A DNA stretch of 32,662 nt from Candidatus Nanopelagicales bacterium (lineage in GTDB: Bacteria; Actinomycetota; Actinomycetes; S36-B12; UBA5976), in contig JBIKSQ010000002.1 in the NCBI GenBank assembly GCA_044348555.1, forward strand, positions 1 to 32,662, in the 5' to 3' direction. The translations under genes and the position numbers were made by a program. The notes below the pieces were generated by a model. That model saw nothing but the letters and a program-made list of their open reading frames with translations. It was not told the origin of the DNA and did no database searches. This document shows, piece by piece, positions 3,059 through 21,016 of this stretch. The stretch's first letter is position 1. Each line of letters begins with the position of its first letter.

Positions 3059-3127
3059 GTAAATGTCTGGATTGACATTGAATTGCGTCGTTCGGCTAGT
3101 GTTCGCAAACCCTACGGACGAGGACAC

Positions 3128-5407
3128 ATGAAAAAATTCATCATCGCCTTCTTGACAACCCCGCTATTGATCTCAACCTTGATTTCACCGGCTAAAGCAA
3201 ACGGGCTGGATTTGACGCCAATTTCTTTTCAGAGTGTTCTTTGTTCTAATAGAGACACCATCTTCACCAGCTTGCAGCAGCACACACTGCCTGAACTGCT
3301 AGCTATAGATCCAGTGAACTTCTACGGGATAAGACGCACCTATCAATTACTCGATAGCACCACTCCAATTGATGACCCAATCGTATTGACCTCAAGCACC
3401 CTTCGAATGAGCGAATCACATATGTTTGATCGGACAGATTTTAATGTTGAAAATCTTGGCGACTTTACTAATTTAAAAATGCAGTTGACTACCGCTGCCA
3501 TTGACGCCAATGGCGATCCGGGGGCTTTCGCTGTGGAAACTTTTGACATTCCGGACATCTACGAAGCAGGCCAAGTTGTTGGCTTGGGCACTGCCAGCGA
3601 GCCCTACTTAGTGAATACGCCTGAGCAATTCAGTGCCTTGCGCTGTCTGGATATTGATAACCGAGAACGAGATCGCTCTGATTGGGACCGTTTGCATGTG
3701 GAGATAACCTCGGATTTGCAGATGAGTGAAAGTGTTTTCATTCCGTTCTCAGTTCGGTACGCAAAGATTGATGGAAATAACCACACCATCTCAAACTTGC
3801 AGACCTTTGGCCACCGCACTGGCATGTTTGCGGACACAAATGACAGCTCATTCAAAAACTTAAATTTCCGCAAAATCCAAATCAATGGCGGTCTAGGTGT
3901 CGGAATTTTTGGGAACTACTGCAACAACGTGGAGTTTGAAAACATTAAAGTTACATTCTCCGACATCACCGCACTTAATGGCGGCACTATCTGCAACGAT
4001 GTTGATAGAGCTCACTTTAAGAATATTGAAGTCGACTCAACCTTCAATATCATCGCCAACGACATTGATTCGGCAGAGTTTCGTGAAAACATTCCCTCAA
4101 TGTATTTTGAACAGGGGATCGGTGGCCTGGTAGGCGAGGCTAGTTCTTCAATGTTTGAAAACGTAAATGTTAAATTCAAAGTGCAAAGTGGTATGGGAAT
4201 CCTGAATCATTCAAGTGAAATACTTGCCAATAATCTGATGGATTTAACAAATATCGGTGGACTATTCGGTAGATCAACGGATGACGTGAACGTAGAACAT
4301 TCAAGCATCGACTTTACGCTCGATTTCGCGGGTGCAAACCGAGCCCGAAACATTGGTGGCGTCACTGGAAATGCTCTAAGTGTCCTTCTGCAAAATGTGA
4401 AAGCTGTCACAGATATTTCACTGACTAACCCAACCCAAAGGTATACAGATGAAACATCAAATTTTGATTCAATTGGTGGCTTGGTTGGTCGAGAAATTGA
4501 TTCTTCCATTTTTGGCTCCTCTGTAACTGGGAACATCGATATCACTGCGTCCGCCAACATTTCAGACTGGCGCATTTCTCATGTAGGCAGTATTTGGGGA
4601 TACACTGAAGAAGATTTACTTGTGCAACGGGTACGGGCTGATGTTGATATATCAATGGCTGTACCCAATGTTTCTGCTGTTGGAGCAATTGGTGGCCGAT
4701 GGAGAATTGCTTGGCTCAAAGATGTCGCAGTCCATTCAGACCTAAACGTCTCCACTAGTAGCAACGAATGTGATGAATTCGGTGTCGGCGCTTTCACTGG
4801 TGAAGACGGTGGCCTAGGTAGAGTTGAGCGGGTTGTAGCAACCGGCAACATTTCCCTGCAAACCAGTTGTAGCAAAAGCAACCTCAGTGGCACTTTCGGT
4901 TATTCGAGATCGGAAAGCAGGGTTTTCTGGAACAACTCATATTGGAACTCCAGCACAGATTCTGATCTTGGCACCAGAACTGACCCTGCTAATGGAGTTG
5001 GCGCAACCACAAACCAGTTGAAGACTCGCAAGTTTTTCAATGCAAAGGAATACGACTTTAAGAAGATCTGGACGATGGATTCTAAAACTGGGTTTGCCAC
5101 ACTTCGCCCGAACAAGGGTTACACCAGTACTGCGTTGAAGGCGCAATCTTCAAAGCAGGGACTCATTGGATTCTCAAACTTGGCAAGCGATAGTCGACGC
5201 ACTTACAAAATCAATTTGCTAAGTTCTGACGCTGGAAAATCTGCGACTATCCGAATCAGAGGCACTGGAAGCGCAAAGTCACTAAAGCGAGTGAAGCTGA
5301 ACCGTCAGGGTGATGCAACTTTCAAGTCAAACGTCACACTAAACGTTGGCGACTTACTTCAACTTGTTGTTGATAAAAAAGTGCGAGTCAAACTATTACT
5401 CAAATAA
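3128..5407 (+). CDS. Secreted GLUG-motif repeat surface protein
   Basis: The longest ORF starts at TTG 3083. ATG 3128 is preceded by GAGGA (5-nt spacer) and yields the signal peptide MKKFIIAFLTTPLLISTLISPAKA. GLUG-type motifs recur (IGGLVGE, IGGLFGR, IGGVTGN, IGGLVGR), and the GTASEPYLVNTPEQF lead-in is common in GLUG proteins. No LPXTG. AT-rich relative to the housekeeping genes. Confidence 0.7.
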   Translation: MKKFIIAFLTTPLLISTLISPAKANGLDLTPISFQSVLCSNRDTIFTSLQQHTLPELLAIDPVNFYGIRRTYQLLDSTTPIDDPIVLTSSTLRMSESHMFDRTDFNVENLGDFTNLKMQLTTAAIDANGDPGAFAVETFDIPDIYEAGQVVGLGTASEPYLVNTPEQFSALRCLDIDNRERDRSDWDRLHVEITSDLQMSESVFIPFSVRYAKIDGNNHTISNLQTFGHRTGMFADTNDSSFKNLNFRKIQINGGLGVGIFGNYCNNVEFENIKVTFSDITALNGGTICNDVDRAHFKNIEVDSTFNIIANDIDSAEFRENIPSMYFEQGIGGLVGEASSSMFENVNVKFKVQSGMGILNHSSEILANNLMDLTNIGGLFGRSTDDVNVEHSSIDFTLDFAGANRARNIGGVTGNALSVLLQNVKAVTDISLTNPTQRYTDETSNFDSIGGLVGREIDSSIFGSSVTGNIDITASANISDWRISHVGSIWGYTEEDLLVQRVRADVDISMAVPNVSAVGAIGGRWRIAWLKDVAVHSDLNVSTSSNECDEFGVGAFTGEDGGLGRVERVVATGNISLQTSCSKSNLSGTFGYSRSESRVFWNNSYWNSSTDSDLGTRTDPANGVGATTNQLKTRKFFNAKEYDFKKIWTMDSKTGFATLRPNKGYTSTALKAQSSKQGLIGFSNLASDSRRTYKINLLSSDAGKSATIRIRGTGSAKSLKRVKLNRQGDATFKSNVTLNVGDLLQLVVDKKVRVKLLLK

Positions 5408-5459: not shown

Positions 5460-6402
5460 AGGAAAAGTTTCGCTTCATGAAGTTGACCGTGTTTGTGATC
5501 GCACTGTTAAATGTCGAATCGTAGAAAGTGTGTCCAGCGCCGGATCTTTTTGCGTACTTCACAGTCTTGCCGTTTGCTTTCAACCGCTTGACGGCTTTGT
5601 CTGCCCACTTGACTGGACAAGTCGTATCAGCAGAACCGTGTTCAACCAGAATCGGTTCACTAATGCGATCAAAGTAAGAAAGTGGAGACATCCCCCGCCA
5701 GAAAGATGGATTCTCTTTGTTATCGCCATACTTTCCAATCACATATTTCTTCACATCTGGATCGTTTGCCATCCATTTCTGAACATTCTCCCAAGCCAAC
5801 GTGCTGACCGATGCCCAGACAACAGCAGAATCAAACAAACCAGGACGACTAATTAGAGCGTTGTAAGCAACCGCCCCACCCATCGAACGACCAAAAAGCG
5901 AAAGCTGATTTTTGTTGAATTTTGGATTTGATGAAGCCTTGATTGCTAAAGCTGCATTGATTACATCTTCGGTATATCCGTAGCGCAACTTCTTCATGAA
6001 GTTTGGATCATTGTCCGAACCGGCATGATTTCGGTAATCAACATGGAAAGCCACAATGCCACGACGAGCTAAGTAATCTTGCTCACGCGCCATCCCCTGG
6101 CCAGTTACATAAATATCCGGATCGATGTATCCGTGAGCCAAGATGGCAACTGGAAATGGTCCCCGCCCTTTTGGAATGTTCATGACACCAGTGATCTTCA
6201 AACCGTTACTTCGGTAACTAACTTGATAACGGTCGTACGAAGAATTTGAAGAAACTTTTCGATCAAGCTTGAAGCTCTTACCCACAAAAGTCTGAGACCA
6301 GAGTGTTTGCAAACTCAAATCATTCGCAGTGGCAGGCGTGGTCGCAAAACCCAAAATCAGCGCGATCGAGGCTAAAAATGAAACAAGCGTTTTCTTTAAC
6401 AT
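5458..6402 (-). CDS. Secreted alpha/beta hydrolase (prolyl-oligopeptidase S9 / dienelactone-hydrolase-like)
   Basis: Signal peptide MLKKTLVSFLASIALILGFATTPATA. AILAHGY oxyanion region, nucleophile elbow GRSMGG, acid block GSADTT, His block GAGHTF. Confidence 0.8.
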   Translation of the reverse strand: MLKKTLVSFLASIALILGFATTPATANDLSLQTLWSQTFVGKSFKLDRKVSSNSSYDRYQVSYRSNGLKITGVMNIPKGRGPFPVAILAHGYIDPDIYVTGQGMAREQDYLARRGIVAFHVDYRNHAGSDNDPNFMKKLRYGYTEDVINAALAIKASSNPKFNKNQLSLFGRSMGGAVAYNALISRPGLFDSAVVWASVSTLAWENVQKWMANDPDVKKYVIGKYGDNKENPSFWRGMSPLSYFDRISEPILVEHGSADTTCPVKWADKAVKRLKANGKTVKYAKRSGAGHTFYDSTFNSAITNTVNFMKRNFS

Positions 6403-6447
6403 TTCAAAAGGCTAATTGGTATTTGGGTTACCTGCCATCTGAAGGGT

Positions 6448-7365
6448 TTACTCGGGGATCTCAGCCTCAGGGCCAGAGAAATCCTTCGGAGTATGTGGGA
6501 TCTTTTTGTTGAATTCCCGTTTCCACGCGAATATCGCAAGCGCGATAACTGCAACAATCGTGATGGCAAGCAGCGTCAGGTTGATTGTTGAACTTGTGCC
6601 TGCTGCACCAAGCAACGTGCGCCCGTTTGTGATGATGACCACGCCACCAATTAATACGCCGAAAGGCGCATGCGGCAGGCGACCCGCTAGTCGGGCAGCA
6701 ATTGGGGCCATTAATACTCCGCCGAGCATTAAACCAAGCACGACAGTTACTGGAACTTCAGTTTCCGCAGTACTCAAACCGAACAAGAAACCAAGGCTGG
6801 CCGCGACTGCAACCGCAAACTCAGCTGCACTAACCGTTCCAATCACTAAGCGTGGGTGGGTGCGGGTTGCGGTTAGCAAAGTTGGTGTAGTGATTGGTCC
6901 CCAACCGCCACCGCCGGAAGCATCAACAAATCCTGCAAAGGCACCAAGACCGGCGAGCGTGTAGCCACGAAGCATCTTCTTTTTTGCTTTAATCACTGCG
7001 ATGCCGAAACCGAACCGAATCAGCAGAACTAGTCCGAGCAAAAACAAAAGCCCCGACATGTACGTGCGAGCGCCATCAAGGGAGAACTGAGTTAAAACTG
7101 TTGCTCCGACAAACGCACCAATTGCACCGGGCAGAGCAATCCGCAACAGGATGTGCTTGTCCACATTGCCTTCGCGCCAATGCGACAGACCGCTAGCCAA
7201 AGTGGTCCCGATCTCAGCAAAGTGAACTGCCGCCGAGGCAGCCACAGCAGAAGCCCCGAGCAGAACTAGTGCGGTTGAACTAGTAATGCCGAATGCCATA
7301 CCGAGCGTGCCATCAACAAACTGCGCTACCGCACCAGCGATTGCGTACCAAAGTGTTTCAAGCAT
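6448..7365 (-). CDS. TauE/SafE family sulfite/anion exporter membrane protein
   Basis: 305 aa with about 8 Gly/Ala-rich hydrophobic helices. The N-terminus AGAVAQFVDGTLGMAFG and internal FAGFVDASGGGGWGPI blocks are characteristic of the TauE/SafE (DUF81) family. Confidence 0.75.
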   Translation of the reverse strand: MLETLWYAIAGAVAQFVDGTLGMAFGITSSTALVLLGASAVAASAAVHFAEIGTTLASGLSHWREGNVDKHILLRIALPGAIGAFVGATVLTQFSLDGARTYMSGLLFLLGLVLLIRFGFGIAVIKAKKKMLRGYTLAGLGAFAGFVDASGGGGWGPITTPTLLTATRTHPRLVIGTVSAAEFAVAVAASLGFLFGLSTAETEVPVTVVLGLMLGGVLMAPIAARLAGRLPHAPFGVLIGGVVIITNGRTLLGAAGTSSTINLTLLAITIVAVIALAIFAWKREFNKKIPHTPKDFSGPEAEIPE

Positions 7366-7429
7366 TTTTCCCTCTAATTCTTTTAATGGGGGTAAACTAG
7401 CCCTATTAAAACTATTTCAGGCAAGCGTG

Positions 7430-7912
7430 TCAATTCGGCGCGCCCCACGCGGTTGGATCATCAAGAATTACCTGAATAAAGTCCGGAAAACTTTGATCCA
7501 GTACGTCCTGGAGGCTCACTGTGTCCAAGATTCGGCGCTCTTTAGCCCGAAGTGCAATCCACACCTTTTCCAGCCCCGCAGCAGCGCCTTCATACTCAAC
7601 GCCTTCCGGCCGTTGCCCTCGAACCAAGGTCAATGGGCCATCGATTGCTCTAATCACATCGGCTAAGTGAATTTCTGCGGCAGGTCGGGCCAACTTGAAA
7701 CCACCCGTACGACCTTTTCGGCTCTCAACCAGTCCAGCTCGTTTCAGTGCACTAACTGCTGTACGCAAGTAGTCCTCCGAGAGCGTTTGCTTCTCTGCGA
7801 TGTAATCAAGACTCACCCACTCATCACTGCCTGCGGCGATTTCGAGCATGGCTCGAAATCCGTAGTCGGTTAGGGCTGTAAATCGCATGCCCGAATTATC
7901 GTTGAAAATCAT
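7430..7912 (-). CDS. Rrf2 family transcriptional regulator (cysteine-free type)
   Basis: MRFTALTDYGFRAMLEIA ... LSEDYLRTAVSALKRAGLVESRKGRTGGFKLARP matches the Rrf2 winged-HTH pattern. There is no Cys anywhere in the protein, so no Fe-S ligand set. The internal ATG at 7888 (MRFT...) is the more likely true start. Confidence 0.85.
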   Translation of the reverse strand: MIFNDNSGMRFTALTDYGFRAMLEIAAGSDEWVSLDYIAEKQTLSEDYLRTAVSALKRAGLVESRKGRTGGFKLARPAAEIHLADVIRAIDGPLTLVRGQRPEGVEYEGAAAGLEKVWIALRAKERRILDTVSLQDVLDQSFPDFIQVILDDPTAWGAPN

Positions 7913-7996
7913 GCTGCTGGTTCGAACTAGCCACTTTTTGAAAAATACATCCCTTTATAAATACAGGTACTCTGAGAGTGTGCGAAAGGAGCCGCG

Positions 7997-8425
7997 ATGA
8001 TGGCTTGGATGTGGATTATTGCAGCGGGAGTTCTGCTTGGCGTTGAAATCATGACAGCAGATTTATTGTTTGCATCGTTGGCGATTTCAGCATTAGCTGC
8101 AGGACTCGCAGGTGGACTAGGCGCAAACATGGTTGTGCAGGTGATTGTGTTTGCGGTTACAGCTGCAATCACGATCGGAATGTTGCGCCCAATAGCTTTG
8201 AAGCATTTGCGTAAGCAACCCGCCGATGCAGCCACAAATATGGATGCTCTGGTTGGTGCCACAGCACATACCCTCGAATTAGTCAGCCCAACCGTGGGAA
8301 CAGCAAAACTTTCTGGAGAAGTTTGGACTGCCAGAACAGATGAAGGCGAAGTTCCTGCAAACACCAAAGTTTCTGTCGTGCGCATTGATGGCGCAATCGC
8401 GATAGTCAAAGTTAAGGGAGAATAG
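7997..8425 (+). CDS. NfeD family membrane protein
   Basis: AAAGGAG SD upstream. N-terminal TM helices, then the C-terminal soluble OB-like segment GTAKLSGEVWTARTDEGEVPANTKVSVVRIDGAIAIV. The gene ends 2 nt before an SPFH gene, the classic NfeD-SPFH pairing. Confidence 0.8.
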   Translation: MMAWMWIIAAGVLLGVEIMTADLLFASLAISALAAGLAGGLGANMVVQVIVFAVTAAITIGMLRPIALKHLRKQPADAATNMDALVGATAHTLELVSPTVGTAKLSGEVWTARTDEGEVPANTKVSVVRIDGAIAIVKVKGE

Positions 8426-8427
8426 TT

Positions 8428-9318
8428 ATGGAAGATTTCTTGAGTGCCGGTATCGGATTTTTTGCGATATTGATTCCAATCCTGATTGTTGCAGCTGTAT
8501 TGGTTCGTTCAATTCGAATCGTGCCACAAGCAAATGCTGGAATTGTTGAACGTCTCGGCCGTTACCACCGAACACTTGGGGCTGGCTTAGCTCTTATCGT
8601 TCCTTTCGTTGATCGAGTTCGACCACTAGTGGATTTGCGTGAGCGCGTGGTTTCATTCCCACCACAGCCAGTTATTACTTCTGACAACTTGGTGGTGTCT
8701 ATTGACACTGTTATTTACTTCCAAGTTACTGATGCGAAATCAGCTACCTACGAAATCGAAAACTTTATTCAAGGTATCGAACAACTTGTTGTTACTACCC
8801 TCCGTAACGTTGTTGGTGGGCTAGACCTAGAGCAAGTTTTAACAAGCCGCGATGCAATCAATGCGAACTTGCGCGGAGTACTAGACGAGGCAACTGGCAA
8901 ATGGGGCGTGCGCGTCAATCGGGTTGAACTAAAGGCGATTGATCCACCACCATCAGTTCAGGAGTCGATGGAAAAGCAGATGCGCGCTGAGCGTGACAAG
9001 CGTGCGGCGATTTTGACTGCTGAAGGTGAAAAGCAGAGCCAAATTCTTACCGCAGAAGGTTTCCGCCAAGCCGAAATCCTGCGCGCAGAAGGCGATGCTC
9101 AGGCAGCAATCTTGCGCGCACAAGGTGAAGCCGAAGCGATTGCGAAAGTTTTCGGAGCAATCCATGAAGCCAACCCAGATGAAAAGGTCTTGGCCTACCA
9201 GTATCTCCAGCAGCTACCTGCAATCGCTAATGGCACCGCGAGCAAGGTTTGGGTAATCCCAGCGGAACTCTCAGGAGCAGCAGAGAAACTAGCTAAGGCT
9301 TTCAATCCCGATAAATAG
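8428..9318 (+). CDS. SPFH/band 7 (stomatin/QmcA-like) membrane protein
   Basis: N-terminal TM helix, SPFH core RIVPQANAGIVERLGRYHRTLGAGLALIVPFVDRV...DNLVVSIDTVIYFQVTD, and an Ala/Glu-rich coiled coil (AEILRAEGDAQAAILRAQGEAEAIA). Confidence 0.9.
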   Translation: MEDFLSAGIGFFAILIPILIVAAVLVRSIRIVPQANAGIVERLGRYHRTLGAGLALIVPFVDRVRPLVDLRERVVSFPPQPVITSDNLVVSIDTVIYFQVTDAKSATYEIENFIQGIEQLVVTTLRNVVGGLDLEQVLTSRDAINANLRGVLDEATGKWGVRVNRVELKAIDPPPSVQESMEKQMRAERDKRAAILTAEGEKQSQILTAEGFRQAEILRAEGDAQAAILRAQGEAEAIAKVFGAIHEANPDEKVLAYQYLQQLPAIANGTASKVWVIPAELSGAAEKLAKAFNPDK

Positions 9319-9328
9319 TTAGGCACAA

Positions 9329-9344
9329 CTAGGGAAAACCCTAG
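9329..9344. promoter_or_regulatory. Palindrome CTAGGG-AAAA-CCCTAG inside a conserved block upstream of paralog 1
   Basis: Perfect inverted repeat ctagggaaaaccctag. The block aactagGgaaaaccctagtTaTtccattaactAcctac recurs upstream of paralog 3 (11435-11470) with 4 substitutions. Confidence 0.3.
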
Positions 9345-9379
9345 TTATTCCATTAACTACCTACTTAAGCAACAAACTA

Positions 9380-9420
9380 GAATCATCCGCATCACATAAT
9401 GTGAATCGGGTGATTCTTTA
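9380..9420 (+). terminator. Candidate rho-independent terminator after the NfeD-SPFH pair
   Basis: gaatcatccg (9380-9389) pairs with cgggtgattc (9407-9416): 10 bp with one G.U. The inner cac/gtg pairing extends the hairpin, and tttatta follows. Confidence 0.5.
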
Positions 9421-9450
9421 TTACCGACTTAAAACTTAGAAAGTTGCGTT

Positions 9451-10422
9451 ATGAACTCAAAACTTCGTTCCAGCCTAATCGGCCTATCGGCACTTGCCTT
9501 GGTTCTTACCGGCACTCTTTATGCCCCGAGCCAGGCTGCTAAGAAATTGCCTAGCAACGTAAGTCACACCATACAGCTCGATGGATCTTCGAACTCGAAG
9601 TTAAATGCCACCCAAATCGCATCCTTCAGAAAAAAACTAGTGAACGCTTCTCACCTGACCAAGATTGATTGCGTAATCCGCCATGCTGCAAGCATTTCAA
9701 GCGGTAATCTGGCAAAGGTAACAAGAGCAGGGCAGACTGCTTGCCAGTCAGCCCGAAAAGCCAATCCCAATTTGCAAATTTGGGACATAAGTTTTAGTGA
9801 AAGCTCACGACTCAAAGGCACCAAGTTCAATCTGGCATTGAGTGTGTACGCCCCAAGAACGGTTTCGTTTCAAAATACAAACGAAAGAGAAGTTGAACTT
9901 CCTTCAAATTCTAGAGTCTTGAGTTTCAATGGCTCGTACTTGATTCCAGATGCTCCATCAACAGATGTCGCTCATGTGGAATTTCTACATTGGAATTCCC
10001 AGCCAGATGGGAGCGGCACAATTTATCTGCCTGGCGAAACAACCAGAATAAAGCACGCGCTTACTTTGTACCCATATTACGAAGGCCACACCATTAATTT
10101 CAATCTAGTTTCATTGAACACGTCGGTAGGAAGTAACTATCAACTTCTCTACTGGTCAACAAGTAACAGCTACCTGATACCAGTTCTCTCAGCATCGACG
10201 TCTTTTCAGGCTTCAACTGATGAAAATGAGATGATAGTCAATCTCCCTGGAATAATGACTAATACAACAGGTTTTCTTGCCATGCCGGGAATTAACGTCA
10301 GCTGGATTGGAGCTGGGACTTGCCCAATGATCGGTGCTGTGGCAGATGCATGCACAACTTTCAAAATCACCTACACGACAAGTGGAACCGTCACTTTCAA
10401 TTTTGAAGGTTACGTTTCTTAA
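9451..10422 (+). CDS. Secreted protein of unknown function, tandem paralog 1 of 3 (Cys-pair N-domain, Listeria/Bacteroides Flg_new-like repeat, Cys-pair C-domain)
   Basis: Signal peptide MNSKLRSSLIGLSALALVLTGTLYAPSQA|AKKLP. Four conserved Cys in two pairs. The central segment RTVSF...FLHWNSQPDGSGTIYLPGETTRIKHALTLYPYY resembles the tVtF..F.GW....dG..y......v....tLYa.w pattern of InlB B-repeat/Flg_new domains. Alignable along its full length with 10452..11420 and 11521..12501. Confidence 0.8.
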   Translation: MNSKLRSSLIGLSALALVLTGTLYAPSQAAKKLPSNVSHTIQLDGSSNSKLNATQIASFRKKLVNASHLTKIDCVIRHAASISSGNLAKVTRAGQTACQSARKANPNLQIWDISFSESSRLKGTKFNLALSVYAPRTVSFQNTNEREVELPSNSRVLSFNGSYLIPDAPSTDVAHVEFLHWNSQPDGSGTIYLPGETTRIKHALTLYPYYEGHTINFNLVSLNTSVGSNYQLLYWSTSNSYLIPVLSASTSFQASTDENEMIVNLPGIMTNTTGFLAMPGINVSWIGAGTCPMIGAVADACTTFKITYTTSGTVTFNFEGYVS

Positions 10423-10451
10423 ATCCTACAAAGTTCTTAGAAGGTTGCGTT

Positions 10452-11420
10452 ATGAATAAGAAGCTTCGTGCCAGCCTGGTCGGTTTGTCGGCACTTGCCT
10501 TAGTTTTTGCCAGCAGTTTGTATGTCCCAAGTCAAGCTGCAAAAAGATTACCGGTCAGCCTTAGCCAAAGCGTTGAATTGAGTGCCACTTCAAATTCGAA
10601 ACTCAAGCCAACCCAAATAGCGGCTTTCAAAAAGAAGATTGCCAAAGGTTCACATCTAACTTTGTTCCAGTGCGCAGTTAAACATGCTGAAGACATATCT
10701 GAGACAAACTTGGCAAAGGTAACTAAAGCAGCTCGAACGGCATGCCAGTCAGCTCGAGCAGTTACGAAAAATCTCAAGAATGTGGGTTACGAATACTACG
10801 AGGATTCAAAATACACAGGTACAAAGTTCAAACTTGAAATCTACGTATTTGGTCCAAGGATCGTTTCCTTCAATCACGTAGGCCTCAATATTTCCCTACC
10901 CGCAAATTCAAAGATCCTAAAATTCAATGCCTCATATCTAACTCCACCAGCTCCGACTGGAGTAGTAACTGCGGCTTCATTTATGAGTTGGAATACTCGA
11001 ATGGACGGCACTGGAATTGACTACCAACCTGGCCAGAGGATCAAAGTCAAGCATCAGCTTGATTTATATCCAAAGTATGTTGGGCACACACTCAACTTCA
11101 ACATCGTTTCGTTAGACACAGCGTCTGGGAGCAACTACCAGATTCTTTACCACAATGTAATGGAATTCGATTTACAGCCAGTATTTTCCAAGTCAGTGCA
11201 AATTTTTGTTCCAACTGACGAGAGTATGTTGGTGATGTATGTACCCGGTATATCAGCCAACACGTCAGCCTTCTCAGTGACTCAGGGACTAAGTGTTAAC
11301 CTCGCAGGAACTGGGTTTTGTGGCGCAATCGCATCTGTAGAAATGGAATGTTCAATTTTTGAGATTACATTCTCTAACAGCGGAACGATTACCTACGACC
11401 ACAACAATTACGATTCATAA
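10452..11420 (+). CDS. Secreted protein of unknown function, tandem paralog 2 of 3
   Basis: Signal peptide MNKKLRASLVGLSALALVFASSLYVPSQA|AKRLP. Same four Cys and same domain order; FMSWNTRMDGTGIDYQPGQRIKVKHQLDLYPKY. Only 29 nt separate it from paralog 1, and it carries the conserved 16-nt leader cttagaaggttgcgtt. Confidence 0.8.
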   Translation: MNKKLRASLVGLSALALVFASSLYVPSQAAKRLPVSLSQSVELSATSNSKLKPTQIAAFKKKIAKGSHLTLFQCAVKHAEDISETNLAKVTKAARTACQSARAVTKNLKNVGYEYYEDSKYTGTKFKLEIYVFGPRIVSFNHVGLNISLPANSKILKFNASYLTPPAPTGVVTAASFMSWNTRMDGTGIDYQPGQRIKVKHQLDLYPKYVGHTLNFNIVSLDTASGSNYQILYHNVMEFDLQPVFSKSVQIFVPTDESMLVMYVPGISANTSAFSVTQGLSVNLAGTGFCGAIASVEMECSIFEITFSNSGTITYDHNNYDS

Positions 11421-11436
11421 ATACCTCAACCCCTAA

Positions 11437-11452
11437 CTAGAGAAAACCCTAG
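11437..11452. promoter_or_regulatory. Imperfect copy of the CTAGGG-AAAA-CCCTAG element upstream of paralog 3
   Basis: ctagagaaaaccctag, embedded in the same conserved block as 9329-9344. Confidence 0.25.
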
Positions 11453-11520
11453 TAAATCCATTAACTCCCTACTGGGGAGCAAGATAGAATCATTGAGTTA
11501 AACACTTAGAAAGTTGCGTT

Positions 11521-12501
11521 ATGAATAAGAAGCTTCGTACCAGCCTGGTTGGTTTTTCGGCACTTGCCTTAGTTCTTGCAGGCACTCTGTACGCCCCAAG
11601 TCAAGCTGCAAAGAAACTGCCCTCGAACATAAAACACACCATCCAGCTCGATGCATCTTCAAAGTCGAAGTTAAATGCCACCCAAGTCGCATCCTTCAGA
11701 AAAAAAATAGTGAACGCTTCTCACCTGACCAAGGTTGATTGCGTAATCCTCCACGCTGAAAGCATGTCAAGTGGGAATCTGGCAAAGGTAACAAGAGCAG
11801 CTCAGACTGCTTGCCAGTCAGCCCGAAAAGCCAATCCCAATTTGAAACTTGAAGACATAAGCTTTCGTGGAAGCTCACGCATCAAAGGCACAAAGTTCAA
11901 TCTGGAATTAAAGGTGTACGCTGCAAGAACTGTTTCCTTTAAAAAGGCTTTAGGAATCAACACACCGCTACCAAAAAAATCCAAGATTTTGAAATTTAAT
12001 GCAAAATACGAATTACCCGATGGGCCATCCACATTTGTTGCTGGTGGATCTTTCGTGGGCTGGAATACGCAAGCCGATGGACGCGGTGTTGACTACCAAG
12101 CCGGCCAAACCATCAGAGTCAAACATGCAATCCAGCTACACCCTAAGTACGTTGGCCACACAATCAACTTCAATATAGTTTCGCTAGATACTAACTTTGG
12201 TAGTAACTATCAACTGTTGTACTACGCGCCTGGTGACAATAATTACCAGCGCCCAGTTTTTTCAACCTCTCAACCCGCATTTGTCACAAGTGATGTCAAT
12301 GTAATGATTCTGTATGTTCCTGGTGCTGTATTTAATACGTCAGGCTTTACATTGACGGATGGTATGAGTGTCACCTTAACTGGGGCTAACGGCGGTTCTT
12401 GCCCAGATATTTCCTCGGTAGATACTCAATGCACAGAGTTCACCATTACCTACCTGTTCAGCGGAACCGTCACTTTTGATTACCAAAACTCTATTCAATA
12501 G
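11521..12501 (+). CDS. Secreted protein of unknown function, tandem paralog 3 of 3
   Basis: Signal peptide MNKKLRTSLVGFSALALVLAGTLYAPSQA|AKKLP. The N-domain is nearly identical to paralog 1, including a 42-nt identical run (11803-11844 = 9733-9774). The C-terminal half is strongly diverged. Confidence 0.8.
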   Translation: MNKKLRTSLVGFSALALVLAGTLYAPSQAAKKLPSNIKHTIQLDASSKSKLNATQVASFRKKIVNASHLTKVDCVILHAESMSSGNLAKVTRAAQTACQSARKANPNLKLEDISFRGSSRIKGTKFNLELKVYAARTVSFKKALGINTPLPKKSKILKFNAKYELPDGPSTFVAGGSFVGWNTQADGRGVDYQAGQTIRVKHAIQLHPKYVGHTINFNIVSLDTNFGSNYQLLYYAPGDNNYQRPVFSTSQPAFVTSDVNVMILYVPGAVFNTSGFTLTDGMSVTLTGANGGSCPDISSVDTQCTEFTITYLFSGTVTFDYQNSIQ

Positions 12502-12510
12502 AGTCGATCC

Positions 12511-13137
12511 ATGAAAAATATCGAAGTGTGGATGGACGTAGTCTGCCCATGGAGTCGACTGGCTTTGATTGAGCTTGATCGCACTATCGCTGAAAACAAC
12601 ATTCCAGCGAGAGTGCGGTTACGCAATTTTCGGATTGACCCTGAAGCATCGTCAAACGACTATGGTCAAACGACAATTGAACATCTGTGTTTTACACTAA
12701 ACATAACGCCCGATAAAGCTTTCGCCATTCTAGAAGGCGTGATCAATGCTGGCACCGAGCAAGGTGTAACTTTCAATTTCGAAACGGCACGTGGCGGAAA
12801 CACTCTTGATTCGCACCGGCTCATTCAAGTCGCTAACAAATACTCACTGTCCATTCCAGTTGCCCTAGCAATTTCGAAAGCCCACTTCGAAGATGGAAAA
12901 CTGCCTGGGGAACTCGGCCTGCTAGTCGAAATCGCCAGACAGGTTGGCTTACCTGAGGATGCGATCCAAAAGTTTGAAACCATAAACTCTTACAACGATG
13001 AAGTTCTCGCGGATGAAGAGTTGGCTAGTGAGTTAAACATTGAATCAAGGCCAACCATTTTCATCAACGGTGAATTGGCGTTTGTTGGACTACCCAAACA
13101 GACCGAACTTCTTGCAGTATTAACAAGAGAACTCTAG
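12511..13137 (+). CDS. DsbA/FrnE-like thioredoxin-fold protein (2-hydroxychromene-2-carboxylate isomerase family) with a CPWS site
   Basis: N-terminal IEVWMDVVCPWS aligns with the DVVCPWC motif of the FrnE/DsbA-like family. C-terminal RPTIFINGELAFVG corresponds to the cis-Pro region. No signal peptide. Starts 9 nt after paralog 3. Confidence 0.7.
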   Translation: MKNIEVWMDVVCPWSRLALIELDRTIAENNIPARVRLRNFRIDPEASSNDYGQTTIEHLCFTLNITPDKAFAILEGVINAGTEQGVTFNFETARGGNTLDSHRLIQVANKYSLSIPVALAISKAHFEDGKLPGELGLLVEIARQVGLPEDAIQKFETINSYNDEVLADEELASELNIESRPTIFINGELAFVGLPKQTELLAVLTREL

Positions 13138-13615: not shown

Positions 13616-13674
13616 GAAGGCACAGTATTCAGATTTCAGGATTTACGCCACGCCTAAATTGGTAGTCTTTGTAC

Positions 13675-15846
13675 ATGAGGACTCGGAGCATCAGTGCATC
13701 TATAGCAATTTTGATGCTTGCGGCAGGAAGTCTCTCTCAAATCTCATCACCCGCTGTGGCTGCACCTCAATGCCGTTCTGCACCAATACTGAGTGCAACT
13801 CCATCCAATTCCTGGACACCAACTTCTGGGGTTTCAGTCCGGACTTGGAACTTCGCTCAAGGCATTTCACACAACGGGCCCGAAGCCACCCGGGTTTCGG
13901 TAGCAACCGCAAATCTTGAATCATTCGATCTGAAACCAATGCATTCAGGTTTTCCGACGGTGTCCAGCCCATTCACGATGGTCAGTAGATATAACGCCTA
14001 CGCCGCGATTAACACAGACTTTTTTGATCTTAGTTGGCCCGCTTTTGCGTGGGGTCCTGTAGTCACAGATCGAGTTCCTGAATACATGCCACTTGTCTAC
14101 ACAAACGGCGGATGGCAAGCCAGCTGGTTAAAAGTTGTCGGCACGGTTGAAGCGGTTCCCGATAAAGCTGAAGGTTATGTGACATCCGGCTCATTAAAAA
14201 CTTCCTGGAATGAAATTGCTTTAGGTGGATTGAATCTAAAAAGCCTCCCAACAAACACTGCGATTGTTTACGATAAGGACTTTGTTGGGAACACTCCCAA
14301 GGGTGATGCCACTTTGGTTGTCCAAAACGCAGTGGTGATTGAATCTTTTCCAGCCGGTGTCTCCATCCCCGTGCCCAGTGGCGCCAAGGTAATTCAGGCG
14401 GTTGGTCTAGGCGCGACAAAAATCCGCACAGTTGGTGTGCAGCCACGTGCAGAAATAAAAATTGACGGCCCTGTCTCCAAGGGATTCGTTACCAAAGGAA
14501 CCTTGAAAACCGCAAAAGGAAACATTTCAGTTGTTGGAGTAAATCTCTCGTCATTAAAAAATGGTGCCACAATTTTCAACAAAAACTGGAAAGCCCGCAG
14601 CACACCAAAAGGTGCGCTGACCTGGGTCATCGCGAATGAGAAGATTGTTAAAGTGTTTAAGTCTGGCTCAACCGTAAAACCAACTTCGGAAACCACCGTC
14701 GTGCAGTTCCTCAAGCCATCAAAAGCAGCCAAAGCTGTGACACGTGGGGCTGCGACAAAGCTTTCGCATTCTGTGCCAAGTACTGCTCGGGGATACCGAA
14801 CTAGTGGTGACATCAGAGCTGCTGCAGGTGATATTCCAGTCGAAGCAATCAACTTGACGCTTGCGAATCCAAAAAATGCACTTATTTTTGATAGTAACTG
14901 GAAAACAGAAACACCTAAGGGCGCCATAACTTTAAAGATCCAAGACAACTCAATCATTGAGGTCGACTTGGATGGGAATACCTCTCGACCAGCCCCCGGC
15001 CAATACGTAGTTCAAATTCCTGCACGATTGACTGATTTGGCAAGCAACTTTTCAGCAGAAACTTCTGCTGTAATTGAACTGGATTTACCTTCAACCAGAA
15101 TAAATGCGCTAACTAGCACTCTGATTCGAAGTGACAGCAAGCTTGTGGTTGGGAACGACACCATTCCTATAGGCGCAATTAACCACAATCGCATAGCCAG
15201 CGACCAAGCATCTTTATACAATGCAAACTGGCTCAGCAGCAATCAAGATCGGCTAACTCAAGCTGGCCGGAGCAGTGTTGTGATTCGGGATGGGAAAGTT
15301 GCAGCGATCTACCCAACTGGCGCAAACCTTTTCGTGAACGACACTGACACGATTATTCAATTCCCACGTTTGTTCCGTGCTCAAGTAATTGCCTGGGCAG
15401 TTGGTACTCCAGCCACCATCGAACTTTCGGTTGAAAGTAAAAACAAAAAAGACTTAATAAACGCATTCGGCAGAGGCCGACCAAATCTGAACGACGGTGA
15501 AGTGGTCGCTGTGTGCGATCCGAACGACGATGGTGTCCGACCTCGCACATCGATTGGCTGGGATGCGGCTGGCAACGTGTGGCTAATCACTGGATCGCCG
15601 ACTGGCTCAAATTTGGATAACGACGGCTACCGAGACGGTGGTGCGACAGTCATCCAAATGGCGCAGTGGCTTAAGCAGCTTGGTGCAACTGAAGCAGTCT
15701 CATTCGATGGTGGCGGTTCAACCTGGATGATGCGGAATTCGCCGGATGGTCCACGACGGGTGGATATGGCTGACCCTGGTAATAGCAACAACCCATGGAT
15801 TCGCTCAGTGCCAGTCTCGCTTGGGATAGTGGATCGCACTGACTGA
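13675..15846 (+). CDS. Secreted phosphodiester glycosidase (NAGPA/DUF2233-like) protein with amplified internal module
   Basis: The ORF opens at TTG 13669; ATG 13675 gives MRTRSISASIAILMLAAGSLSQISSPAVAAP. N-terminal YAAINTDFFD and C-terminal RPRTSIGWDAAGNVWLITGSP...ATVIQMAQWLKQLGATEAVSFDGGGSTWM are the two halves of the NAGPA-type domain. Confidence 0.7.
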   Translation: MRTRSISASIAILMLAAGSLSQISSPAVAAPQCRSAPILSATPSNSWTPTSGVSVRTWNFAQGISHNGPEATRVSVATANLESFDLKPMHSGFPTVSSPFTMVSRYNAYAAINTDFFDLSWPAFAWGPVVTDRVPEYMPLVYTNGGWQASWLKVVGTVEAVPDKAEGYVTSGSLKTSWNEIALGGLNLKSLPTNTAIVYDKDFVGNTPKGDATLVVQNAVVIESFPAGVSIPVPSGAKVIQAVGLGATKIRTVGVQPRAEIKIDGPVSKGFVTKGTLKTAKGNISVVGVNLSSLKNGATIFNKNWKARSTPKGALTWVIANEKIVKVFKSGSTVKPTSETTVVQFLKPSKAAKAVTRGAATKLSHSVPSTARGYRTSGDIRAAAGDIPVEAINLTLANPKNALIFDSNWKTETPKGAITLKIQDNSIIEVDLDGNTSRPAPGQYVVQIPARLTDLASNFSAETSAVIELDLPSTRINALTSTLIRSDSKLVVGNDTIPIGAINHNRIASDQASLYNANWLSSNQDRLTQAGRSSVVIRDGKVAAIYPTGANLFVNDTDTIIQFPRLFRAQVIAWAVGTPATIELSVESKNKKDLINAFGRGRPNLNDGEVVAVCDPNDDGVRPRTSIGWDAAGNVWLITGSPTGSNLDNDGYRDGGATVIQMAQWLKQLGATEAVSFDGGGSTWMMRNSPDGPRRVDMADPGNSNNPWIRSVPVSLGIVDRTD
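14170..15438 (+). repeat. Four tandem ~100-aa coding repeats inside the phosphodiester-glycosidase-like gene
   Basis: Units start at GYVTSGSLKT, KGFVTKGTLKT, GYRTSGDIRA and STLIRSDSKL. Each contains an N(L/H)..-...-(F/Y)(D/N)(K/S/A)N(W/F) segment, then PKG(D/A)(A/L/I)T... or AGRSSVVIRDGKV, and ends with (V/I)(V/I)Q(A/F/I). Confidence 0.7.
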
Positions 15847-16166
15847 TGTGCGGGTTTTGTGGGCACTCCCAAAATGACAAGGCGCAGTTGCCGGCCGTAT
15901 AAGGGCGACTCCCAAAACTCAAAATAGTACAAAAGGTTCATACCCATACTTAAAGGCCTTTAAGGTCGTCTGCGCACCCATTCTCCGAGCCTTAATTCCT
16001 GATGAATAATTGCGTAACAATTTGGTACCGTCTTTGAATTTCAACTTGAAATCGCTTTCACAGACTACTTACGGTTCTCCCACGTGTGTGCGCACGGATA
16101 TCGGTGAACGCAATTTCTGGATGCGCCCGCATTCGGATGTTCGCCACATTCTGTGGAAGGAACACA

Positions 16167-18230
16167 TTGATTAACTTAAATTTCAACGGTCGGAAGCTGG
16201 TTGGTTTAACGGCTTCTGCACTTATTGCGATTGCAAGCGTGAACCTGGGAGTTCCCGCTATGGCAAACGGTCTAGCCGCAACTGAAACCACTCTAACCTT
16301 CGAAGACGGCGACACTCTTGGTGCTGACGCGGTTGGCGCAAATGGTCTACAGGACCCAGTCGGTTCATTCGAAGGTGCAATCACCACGATTGCAGATGTC
16401 CCTGCAGGTGGCGGAACTGGAAAAGGTCTCCATCTTGTAAAACAAGCTGCACCAGCCGGTCAGCCTTGGGCAGGTGCGACCCTCATGGATTCGAGCACTA
16501 GCAACATCCGGATTACTGCCGCAGATCTCTCTGCTATCACTTTTGATTACTACTCACCAGATGGCGTTAATTCGCCGCTGATGGTTAAGCTCGAAAACAA
16601 TTCAGTCAACATCGAATTCGTTAAGACTGCATCACCAGGTTGGAACTCGATGTCTTTCGACTTCTCCACCCAAGGTTCATGGAGCGACAGCATCGAATAC
16701 ACCAAGATCACTGTCTTCCCGAACTGGAACAACCCAACAGTTACCAACACTGGGCAGACATATGTATTCGACAACTTCAAAGTTAACACCGCTGATGAAC
16801 CTGTGGTTGGCCCACAGGCAGATCCAGTATTTCTAACCTTTGAAGATGACGACACTCTCGGCGCTGGAGCCGTTGGCAACAACGGTCCTGGAGATGAAAC
16901 CGGAACCTTTAGTGGCGCAACCACGACAATCGCAAACGTCCCAGCTGGCGGTGGAGATGGCAAAGGCCTTAACATCGCAAAGGCTGGTGACCCTTGGTCA
17001 GGCGTAACAGTGTTGGACATTTCCACTTCTGAAGTGAAAATCACTGCGGCTGGACTTGCCACTATCACGTTTGATTACTACTCACCTGACAACATCGATT
17101 CACCAATCATGGCCAAAATTGAAGGTGCTGGCGGGTCCAACGCGATTGAATTTGTAAAGACTGCTTCCTCAGGTTGGAACTCAATGTCATTCGACTTCTC
17201 CACGAAGGGTGAATGGAGCGCAAGCAACGTCTACACCAAATTGACCTTGTTCCCTAACTGGAGTAACCCAACTGTTACAAACACTGGGCAGATCTACGTG
17301 GTCGATAATCTTGGTGTCAACGGTGGCAAAGCAGACCCATCTGCAAAAGCGACTGTGTTGACCTTCGAAGACAGTGACACCCTTGGTGCACTCGTTTCGG
17401 GACTATCAACTGTTGAGAAACCAACCGGTGCTTTTGAAGGTGCATCTGTATCTATCGAAGCTGCACCAGCTGGTTGTGAAGTCGGCGACAGCCTGCATCT
17501 CGTCAAAGAGGGTAATCCATGGTCAGGTGTTACGGTGCTTGATACCTCATCCAGCAACATCTTTGTTGCCGCATCAGGTAAATCAACCATCACTCTCGAC
17601 TACTACTCACCAGATTCAGTTATGTCTCCACTTATGCTCAAGATTGAGGGCGCAGGCGGTGCTGGCGCAATTGAATTTGCCCAGATGGCAGAGCCTGGTT
17701 GGCAGACTCTGACGTACGACTTCTCAACCAAACAAGGTTGGAATTCAAACTTCGAGTACACCCGCCTGGCTATCTTCCCGAACTTTGATCCGCAAAACGC
17801 AACCTCGGTGACCAACACCGGTCAGGTCTACGTCATTGACAATGTGAGTGTTAACGGTGGCGTAGTCGCTGGAGATTGCACACAGGAAGAAGAACCTGAA
17901 GTCATTGCTCCAACTCGCACCAAGGCACCAACCATCAGCGGAACTGCCAAGGTTGGTAAGACTCTGACTGCGAAGAGTGGCACATTCACTGGAACTGACC
18001 CGGTCGTAACCTACCGCTGGTTCGTATGTGAAAAGGCTGCCTCTAAGGCATCTGCTACACAGCCAGGTTCACTCAAGTGCAAGGCAATCAGTGGCAGTGC
18101 AGGCAACAAGAATAAAATGAAAGCAGCCAAGTCACACGCAGGTAAGTTCCTGCGCGTCTCTCAAACGGCAACCAACTCAGCTGGTTCCGTGACGGTTTAC
18201 TCTGCAACCTCTAAGAAGATTGCTAAGTAA
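16167..18230 (+). CDS. Secreted protein with three CBM-like beta-sandwich repeats and a C-terminal Ig-like domain
   Basis: The ORF opens at GTG 16086. In-frame TTG 16167 is preceded by GGAAGGA (5-nt spacer) and gives LINLNFNGRKLVGLTASALIAIASVNLGVPAMA as signal peptide. There are three ~165-aa repeats, then PTISGTAKVGKTLTAKSGTFTGTDPVVTYRWF...GKFLRVSQTATNSAGS, an adhesin-type Ig-like repeat pattern. Confidence 0.7.
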   Translation: MINLNFNGRKLVGLTASALIAIASVNLGVPAMANGLAATETTLTFEDGDTLGADAVGANGLQDPVGSFEGAITTIADVPAGGGTGKGLHLVKQAAPAGQPWAGATLMDSSTSNIRITAADLSAITFDYYSPDGVNSPLMVKLENNSVNIEFVKTASPGWNSMSFDFSTQGSWSDSIEYTKITVFPNWNNPTVTNTGQTYVFDNFKVNTADEPVVGPQADPVFLTFEDDDTLGAGAVGNNGPGDETGTFSGATTTIANVPAGGGDGKGLNIAKAGDPWSGVTVLDISTSEVKITAAGLATITFDYYSPDNIDSPIMAKIEGAGGSNAIEFVKTASSGWNSMSFDFSTKGEWSASNVYTKLTLFPNWSNPTVTNTGQIYVVDNLGVNGGKADPSAKATVLTFEDSDTLGALVSGLSTVEKPTGAFEGASVSIEAAPAGCEVGDSLHLVKEGNPWSGVTVLDTSSSNIFVAASGKSTITLDYYSPDSVMSPLMLKIEGAGGAGAIEFAQMAEPGWQTLTYDFSTKQGWNSNFEYTRLAIFPNFDPQNATSVTNTGQVYVIDNVSVNGGVVAGDCTQEEEPEVIAPTRTKAPTISGTAKVGKTLTAKSGTFTGTDPVVTYRWFVCEKAASKASATQPGSLKCKAISGSAGNKNKMKAAKSHAGKFLRVSQTATNSAGSVTVYSATSKKIAK
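16287..17855 (+). repeat. Three tandem ~500-nt coding repeats (16287-16787, 16827-17321, 17352-17855)
   Basis: Each unit reads (T/F/V)LTFED.DTLGA...G.F.GA...I...PAG...G..L...K.G.PW.G.T.(M/L)D.S.S.I......ITFDYYSPD..(N/D/M)SP(L/I)M.K.E.....IEF(V/A)(K/Q)(T/M)A.(P/S)GW(N/Q)(S/T)(M/L)(S/T)(F/Y)DFST...W.....YT(K/R)....FPN(W/F)....(V/T)TNTGQ.YV.DN..VN. Confidence 0.85.
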
Positions 18231-20943: not shown

Positions 20944-21016
20944 AGCCGCCTGACGGAATCGAACCGTCGACCTTCTCATTACGAGTGAGATGCTCTACCA
21001 ACTGAGCTAAGGCGGC
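20944..21016 (-). tRNA. tRNA-Thr (anticodon CGT)
   Basis: The reverse complement is GCCGCCTTAGCTCAGTTGGTAGAGCATCTCACTCGTAATGAGAAGGTCGACGGTTCGATTCCGTCAGGCGGCT. It has a 7-bp acceptor stem (GCCGCCT/AGGCGGC), D arm GCTC/GAGC, anticodon stem TCTCA/TGAGA with loop CTCGTAA, T arm GACGG-TTCGATT-CCGTC, and no encoded CCA. Confidence 0.95.

Follow-up and report, generated by a model that had tools for sequence, protein, structure and literature searches.

Three adjacent genes for secreted proteins, lying in a stretch of 32,662 nucleotides (nt) from a Candidatus Nanopelagicales bacterium (contig JBIKSQ010000002.1, positions 1 to 32,662 of the forward strand; hereafter the window), raise the question of how paralogs come to be closely similar in one segment and strongly diverged in the next, and what such proteins might do. 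The genes, called p1 (9451-10422; 323 amino acids, aa), p2 (10452-11420; 322 aa) and p3 (11521-12501; 326 aa), stand head-to-tail on the plus strand and encode paralogs with 48-63% pairwise protein identity; the region under study starts at 9319, which is the base right behind the stop codon of the preceding Band_7 gene. Each gene encodes, in this order, a signal peptide (9451-9540, 10452-10541 and 11521-11610 in p1, p2 and p3, respectively), an N-domain (9541-9855, 10542-10856 and 11611-11925), a Flg_new-like module (9856-10086, 10857-11084 and 11926-12156) and a C-domain (10087-10419, 11085-11417 and 12157-12498). An earlier note on this DNA had described three tandem genes of these lengths with a Sec signal, a Cys pair in the N-domain and a second Cys pair, and all of these are present in all three copies. 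The mosaic pattern that the note had also pointed out comes from p3, a chimeric gene made by homologous recombination between copies and strains. As for the role of the proteins, the reading that we favour by a modest degree of confidence is that p1-p3 lack enzymatic activity and act at the cell envelope as binding or coat proteins, encoded in a small flexible locus of the replacement type.

For comparison we used five syntenic contigs (L001-L005), and the whole sample comprises about six independent haplotypes; genes are labeled by contig and position (W for the window; L2_1 for position 1 of L002). Family copies occupy the same slot downstream of an NfeD-SPFH operon in all of them, with three copies in L001, L002, L003 and L005 and one in L004. 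Matrices of per-domain identity, together with bootstrapped trees, sort the genes into four orthogroups: A occupies position 1 (p1, L2_1, L1_1 and, for its N-domain only, L4_1), B position 2 (p2 with its orthologs) and C position 3 (in L001, L002, L003 and L005), while D comprises L5_1, which is at position 1 of L005, and the proteins P0004-6. The third gene of the window, p3, is not of type C, and the window is without a type-C gene.

Nucleotide identity between p1 and p3 is 0.86-0.93 over codons ~31-120 and 0.50-0.64 after that, and p2 and p3 share 0.89 over codons 1-30, where the other pairs share 0.74-0.77, so the earlier observation that p2 and p3 are the closer pair in the signal-peptide region holds. 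The 42-nt run reported as identical between p1 (9733-9774) and p3 (11803-11844) is exact; the ~92 nt preceding it contain 9 mismatches, not about 5. Maximum chi-square scans support two tracts of low divergence (Figures in brackets give difference rates inside and outside the tract): aligned nt 37-420 for p1/p3 (0.133 and 0.427) and nt 1-90 for p2/p3 (0.111 and 0.418), and in both cases 0/100 permutations reach the observed value. The same p1/p3 and p2/p3 segments are returned by a repeat finder. On the plus strand of the window, the first of these tracts is 11557-11940 in p3, matching p1 at 9487-9870, and it is of orthogroup A type, with ~330-380 bp that are 87-93% identical between the two genes (~55% elsewhere); the second, at the 5' end of p3 (11521-11610), covers the ribosome-binding site (RBS) and signal-peptide coding region and shares 89% identity with p2 (10452-10541) and 86% with L2_3, the position-3 gene of L002. 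Informative sites divide p3 into three segments, which are of position-2/3 type from 11521 to ~11600, of p1 (A) type at ~11600-11930 (83 of ~92 sites), and D-like but diverged at ~11930-12498. In agreement with this division, p3 falls inside group A in the N-domain tree (99% bootstrap) and with group D in the tree of the Flg_new module (85%), and its C-domain is nearest to D (69% nucleotide identity to L5_1). The divergence that had been assigned to the C-terminal ~130 aa is real, but it starts at the boundary between N-domain and Flg_new module and covers ~190 aa.

Could such a mosaic arise with no recombination at all, simply from stronger constraint on some segments? The signal-peptide regions are indeed constrained in all pairs, which inflates the permutation tests. 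However, synonymous divergence (dS) falls from saturated values (>1.7) to 0.23 within the tract in the p1/p3 pair only, the two domain trees conflict at the bootstrap values given above, and L002 has a different gene body between flanks of 95% identity, so that we regard this explanation as extremely improbable and retain recombination between copies, as the earlier note had proposed.

The donor of the N-domain tract was probably not the resident p1, because the tract is 12-13% diverged from p1, far above the 3% that separate p1 from its L002 ortholog (dS of p1/L2_1: 0.03-0.06); a group-A gene of another strain, or an event older than the present haplotypes, is the probable source. A comparable junction is found near codon 110 of L4_1, the single-copy gene of L004, and the boundary between N-domain and Flg_new module is therefore a recurrent crossover point. 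Elsewhere, too, paralogs of one genome resemble each other more closely in their signal-peptide regions than orthologs do (e.g. 94% for L1_1/L1_2), which indicates local homogenisation of these regions between the copies of a genome. Homologous recombination thus produces the mosaic at three scales: the 5' end (RBS and signal-peptide region) is homogenised between copies of one genome; the N-domain is swapped at the boundary to the Flg_new module, leaving p3 with a p1-type N-domain on a different body; and the whole mature-coding cassette at position 3 is replaced between strains that are otherwise ~95% identical, with crossovers in the 3' flank and the conserved signal-peptide region.

The third of these is seen in the comparison of the window with L002. 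According to blastn, the two are collinear at ~95% identity over 5796-11621 and again from 12521, and the stretch between them (11622-12520, plus strand), which holds the mature-coding part of p3, is a strain-variable cassette with no collinear counterpart in L002. Position 3 of L002 has a gene body other than that of p3, the breakpoints lying at the 3' end and within the signal-peptide region, and the identity between L002 and the window drops from ~0.96 to 0.81 across p2 toward the cassette boundary. C-domains are accordingly not invariant across strains, a possibility the earlier note had raised as a test of its own reading: whole alleles vary, and copy number ranges from 1 to 3. At least 5 other metagenome contigs contain the window haplotype (99.9-100% identity along 3192 nt), and JGI sample 3300059473 contains it together with a different haplotype. 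We note that one contig (L173), whose haplotype is otherwise identical, has a 25-nt deletion at ~1299-1303 (equivalent to ~10136-10160 of the window), which breaks p1 into two open reading frames (ORFs; 231 and 63 aa). Unless the assembly is at fault here, some cells can do without p1.

Replacement flexible genomic islands, which are exchanged by homologous recombination and show peaks of divergence at their boundaries, are known in aquatic prokaryotes (Lopez-Perez et al. 2014, PMC4033161) and have been described for Planktophila (PMC12817590). The array shows what defines them (different gene versions at the same locus, with recombination in conserved flanks): its slot is syntenic in L001-L005, divergence rises to the boundary, and the products are predicted to be exported. 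Unlike these islands, which comprise 13-50 glycan-biosynthesis genes, the unit exchanged here is one gene body (~0.9 kb) in a 3-kb array, exchange also takes place between resident paralogs, and any link of the array to phage sensitivity is putative.

Clustered paralogs in which a shared 5' or anchor-encoding part is joined to different bodies by recombination are also seen in the sapA homologs of Campylobacter fetus and the slp genes of Lactobacillus. p1-p3 resemble them as clustered paralogs with a shared 5' part on different bodies, but the array has neither silent cassettes nor a single invertible promoter, and there is no evidence of programmed switching. Nor do the genes look like the cassettes of programmed antigenic variation (pilE/pilS, vlsE or sap type), as all copies are full-length ORFs with their own RBS and signal peptide, and a promoter-like element is conserved ahead of both p1 and p3.

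If alleles are exchanged in this way, is it selection for diversity that drives the exchange? The earlier note had suggested diversifying pressure on an exposed C-terminal module; in its full form, the idea is that the pattern stems mainly from positive selection on this module and that gene conversion keeps the N-terminus uniform. Ratios of nonsynonymous to synonymous divergence (dN/dS) between family orthologs are 0.11-0.30 for whole genes (0.45 for the nearly identical pair W_1/L2_1) and 0.13-0.49 for the C-domain (0.81 for W_1/L2_1, on very few changes), as compared to 0.00-0.10 for flanking genes, 0.10-0.15 for a nearby gene for a NAGPA-type phosphodiester glycosidase, and 0.19-0.34, which is high for the region, for a DsbA-like gene next to p3. 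The rate of the C-domain is roughly double that of the N-domain in orthogroups A and B (dN of 0.30 and 0.14, respectively, for W_1/L1_1), and the highest window values (pN/pS of 0.7-0.9) are found at codons 241-285 of p1 orthologs, both of which speak for such selection. Yet every domain-wide and sliding-window ratio is below 1, and N- and C-domains are equally fast in orthogroup C. Between p1 and p2, dN is similar in the N-domain (0.43), the Flg_new module (0.48) and the C-domain (0.50), so conservation is not a general mark of the N-domain; an N-terminus that appears conserved is limited to one pair, with sharp breakpoints, and what had been taken for a family trait (N-conserved, C-diverged) is the footprint of one exchange in p3. 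We therefore consider diversifying selection as the main cause to be unlikely, if still worth keeping in view. With dS at saturation, the paralogs are of old origin, and purifying selection, if somewhat relaxed, maintains each of them.

The proteins (~32 kDa) share a fixed architecture, namely a basic N-domain with one disulfide, a divergent Flg_new module (InlB B-repeat type, putatively beta-grasp) and, as C-domain, an acidic beta-sandwich that in most cases has a disulfide in a loop. By inspection, the N-termini of p1-p3 (MNxKLRxSL, a hydrophobic stretch, then SQA|AKK) carry a Sec signal for signal peptidase I, with neither a lipobox Cys nor twin Arg, and export is predicted from this signal peptide. 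An AlphaFold2 model of p3, built from an alignment of 14 family sequences, has a mean predicted local distance difference test score (pLDDT) of 83 and a predicted template modeling score (pTM) of 0.71, with a disordered signal peptide. The model contains an alpha/beta N-domain (residues ~35-135) with the order beta-alpha-beta-alpha-beta-beta, a small beta module in the middle (residues 136-212) and a beta-sandwich C-domain (residues 213-326; pLDDT of 88 when modeled alone). The C74/C98 pair of the N-domain is invariant in every family member, including the most distant ones, and the second pair (CPxIxxVxxxC in the C-domain), found in p1, p2 and p3, is absent from one orthogroup only (P0011-13). 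All 14 members share a charge dipole, with a basic N-domain (isoelectric point 9.8-10.6, net charge +8 to +13) and an acidic C-domain (isoelectric point 4.1-4.6, net charge -4 to -10).

The central module of ~75 aa shows the signature VxF...LP...F.GWNT..DG.G..Y..G in the alignment. Of the three proteins, p3 alone matches the PF09479 (Flg_new) profile, at 18.9 bits (E-value of 0.0016), which is below the gathering threshold of 27 bits, and 10 of the 14 family members have such sub-threshold matches (best E-value of 4.3e-5); the weak Flg_new resemblance noticed earlier thus stands for p3 and most of the family, but p1 and p2 themselves have no PF09479 match. Consistent with the assignment, residues ~125-228 match Flg_new repeats of unrelated metagenome contigs in tblastn searches (30-50% identity, E-values of 2e-8 to 1e-4), and a weak Foldseek match (E-value of 8e-3) aligns 77 columns with a viral protein annotated as internalin-B-like (root-mean-square deviation of 2.3, 21% identity). 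The B-repeat has been described as a beta-grasp spacer or 'periscope' domain (bioRxiv 10.1101/2024.12.31.630911). The family resembles other carriers of this Listeria-Bacteroides repeat (PF09479; InlB B-repeat) in the sub-threshold matches, in the signature as seen in the alignment, in a tentative beta-grasp-type fold and in predicted export, and it differs from them in having a single repeat instead of a tandem, in scoring below the gathering threshold, in its two flanking domains, which are found nowhere else, and in lacking leucine-rich repeats, GW, LPXTG or any other known partner domain.

No match to the N- and C-domains was found in Pfam, NCBIfam, PHROGs or PDB sequences, in line with the earlier impression that the proteins belong to no characterised family, and Foldseek searches of the PDB gave nothing better than an E-value of 3e-3 for the whole model or the C-domain model. 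The N-domain has a structural match to 6qvp (SiiA, OmpA-like), with a target-normalised TM-score of 0.57 and an E-value of 0.015, and its modeled beta-alpha-beta-alpha-beta-beta order would fit OmpA-like/SiiA peptidoglycan-binding domains. It differs from them in having no sequence or profile signal (no Pfam match, PF00691 included, even at an E-value of 10; 5% probability in an hhalign comparison of its profile with the OmpA-family protein of L002) and no conservation at the position of the binding Arg, and FtsZ C-terminal domains match equally well. The weak Foldseek likenesses to FtsZ C-terminal domains, SiiA, pilins and adhesins were kept as fold-level leads only. We also rejected, as chance, profile matches in the PDB to receptor-binding domains of SARS-CoV-2 and related spikes (residues ~193-239, 12097-12237 in p3; PGQ..K....L...F.G.V.A.N...LD..VG.NY..LY), for which the single-copy E-value is ~0.02-0.2; the match at 5e-5 is to an entry that holds a tandem duplicate of that domain.

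The family is very rare, narrow and lineage-specific. A k-mer-seeded search of 5.8 billion (5.8e9) clusters yielded 13 relatives and one unrelated Flg_new protein, and the N-domain profile found 4 real clusters (at the 50% identity level) among 1.84 billion representatives, all of ~320 aa and with the same three domains; two further matches (P0016 and P0018) are repeat artefacts and not relatives, and a profile that includes distant members gained one more protein. No other ORF in the window or in ~170 fetched loci matches the N- or C-domain profile, a scan of JGI metagenomes returned unrelated Flg_new-repeat proteins only, and no family member was found among viral contigs and PHROGs, for which reason we reject a phage origin. 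There is no compositional sign of a foreign origin either, as GC content at third codon positions is 0.43-0.44 in the array, equal to that of its flanks (window GC content ~48%).

What, then, might the proteins do? In the reading that we favour, the cationic N-domain would hold the protein on the anionic wall, the Flg_new module would serve as a spacer, and the acidic C-domain would form an exposed binding or coat surface; allele turnover may reflect interactions with phages, grazers or ligands, as has been proposed for replacement islands. Several points weigh against this. None of the recognised anchors (LPXTG signal, lipobox, SLH, LysM or others) is present in the proteins: a C-terminal LPXTG with hydrophobic stretch and basic tail is missing, as the sequences end in ...TFNFEGYVS, ...TYDHNNYDS and ...TFDYQNSIQ inside the last beta-strand or helix of the C-domain, and lipoproteins are not expected, as the first Cys is residue 74 and the cleavage region reads PSQA|AKK. 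The likeness of the N-domain to OmpA-like/SiiA peptidoglycan-binding folds is a weak one, seen in the model at fold level alone. Arms-race selection is not demonstrated, given that no ratio above 1 is found domain-wide or in any 30-codon window of orthologs; the sample of haplotypes is small; and both function and location are putative.

A bolder version, to which we give rather little credence, is that a planktonic actinobacterium with a streamlined genome uses the array to build an outer coat, or a layer of phage receptors, that is specific to the strain and in which a new cationic wall-anchor domain and an acidic head are joined by a Flg_new spacer, and anchor-head combinations arise from domain-boundary recombination and from single-gene cassette swaps between co-existing strains. 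If true, this would resolve constant-diversity dynamics to one gene.

In another possible reading, each of the three paralogs would be a non-redundant subunit of a single assembly, for example a heteromer or an S-layer-like lattice. An acidic, presumably exposed domain next to a basic anchor-like one is reminiscent of the organisation of S-layer proteins; furthermore, types A, B and C keep positions 1, 2 and 3 in L001 and L002 (B and C are also in place in L003 and L005), and each orthogroup is under purifying selection. This arrangement is broken, however, by the single copy in L004, the missing type-C gene in the window, the type-D gene at position 1 in L005 and the deletion in p1 of L173, and we find this reading very unlikely.

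The gene neighborhood suggests a further alternative. The gene order is S9 hydrolase, TauE and Rrf2 (all on the minus strand), NfeD and SPFH/Band_7 (plus), p1-p2-p3, DsbA-like (plus), Rieske (minus), the NAGPA-type phosphodiester glycosidase (plus), and then more secreted proteins; TopA, tmk and holB genes are found elsewhere in the window. The proteins could be accessory or binding partners of the glycosidase and take part in glycopolymer remodelling in the wall zone instead of forming a coat or receptor layer: in the window lineage, only a few genes separate the array from a NAGPA-domain gene, and such a gene directly adjoins distant family members in two different arrangements, upstream in L166 (1-867) and downstream in L167 (3193-4449). 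Only three lineages are involved, though, their gene order may come from shared ancestry, and in the window the DsbA-like gene and the opposite-strand Rieske gene intervene, so that this partnership seems improbable to us and envelope-associated binding or coat proteins remain the preferred reading. By eye, the glycosidase itself, a 725-aa secreted protein (13669-15846) with a C-terminal NAGPA domain, has repeated modules of ~95 aa.

The DsbA-like thioredoxin-fold gene (12511-13137, plus strand; PF01323, E-value of 1.4e-22) starts 9 nt after p3, and its membership in the system is doubtful. It is unlikely to encode a dedicated oxidase of the family, since the protein has no signal peptide and a monothiol CPWS in place of CPWC (a motif conserved in L002 and L004), and the gene is missing from L001, where three family copies remain. 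An OmpA-family gene lies between the Rieske and NAGPA genes in L002 (7921-8682) and L001 (11284-12051) and is absent from the window (13630-13658), and L002 has an additional 199-aa ORF ahead of a 703-aa gene; therefore, the whole neighborhood is indel-rich. On the other side of the array, the Band_7 protein is nearest (82-89% identity) to those of metagenome-assembled genomes labeled Nanopelagicaceae, Planktophila and other planktonic Actinomycetota, and NfeD reaches ~50% only. The synteny does not extend to those genomes, and none of 80 loci from a scan of GTDB species representatives seeded with the adjacent Band_7 protein encodes the family. These matches place the source, an uncultured low-GC actinobacterium, near Nanopelagicaceae-type genomes, and any closer placement would be tentative.

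Upstream sequences of the array genes are also conserved. Just past the Band_7 stop and upstream of p1, a perfect 7-4-7 palindrome, ACTAGGGAAAACCCTAGT (9328-9345, plus strand), could be a terminator hairpin or an operator. It is kept in all position-1 upstream regions of L001, L002, L004 and L005, despite a flank dS of ~1. Its copies in these contigs are at 7472-7489 in L001, 3532-3549 and 5640-5657 in L002, 7506-7523 in L004 and 2040-2057 in L005. Its only occurrences in the window are at 9328-9345 and 11436-11453 (0.02 expected by chance), and among 173 loci it is found at family loci only. A promoter-like element follows upstream of p1 (9353-9383, plus strand; TTAACT, 19 nt, TAGAAT), and upstream of p3 a second copy of the palindrome with one mismatch is followed by TTAACT, 18 nt and TAGAAT (11436-11490, plus strand). 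We read the element as promoter-like because both hexamers are conserved across divergent loci, and not because of a consensus scan for promoters and terminators, which performed no better than chance. The p1 upstream region also has a strong hairpin followed by a U-rich run (9379-9423, plus strand), whose RNA fold z-scores range from -5.6 to -7.4 (window, L001 and L005) and which shows compensatory changes in L005; position-1 genes alone are preceded by it, and p3 is not. Its form suggests an intrinsic terminator, which may serve the NfeD-Band_7 operon or act as a leader attenuator. The RBS and start context TAGAAAGTTGCGTTATG is common to p1, p2 and p3 (p2 has GAAGG in place of GAAAG). p2 begins 29 nt after p1, and the two are probably co-transcribed.

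Other observations in the window include an ORF (6-2168; also 263-2740 in L004) with the unusual combination of an alpha/beta-hydrolase (Peptidase_S15/PepX_C-like) fused to the ATPase domain of an ATP-binding cassette (ABC) transporter, followed by an ABC-2 permease gene. ORFs 3083-5407 (774 aa) and 16086-18230 (714 aa) have no Pfam or NCBIfam match, and cross-strain blastn shows that parts of the latter resemble each other at the nucleotide level (16536-16775 and 16832-17308). The sole Rfam match of the window is a tRNA gene (20944-21016, minus strand) between a GH16/fn3 gene and an SGNH-domain gene.

For now, the array documents well, in a very small family, a kind of evolution that is common; it helps annotation, can mark diversity at the strain level, and would not surprise a specialist. 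If the role proposed for the proteins is right, it would be a compact, tractable case of abundant, streamlined aquatic bacteria varying an exposed protein, in which variation would arise by domain-boundary recombination and single-gene allele replacement, not through large glycan islands. It would also add two unclassified extracellular domains, one of which may be a new wall-binding module.

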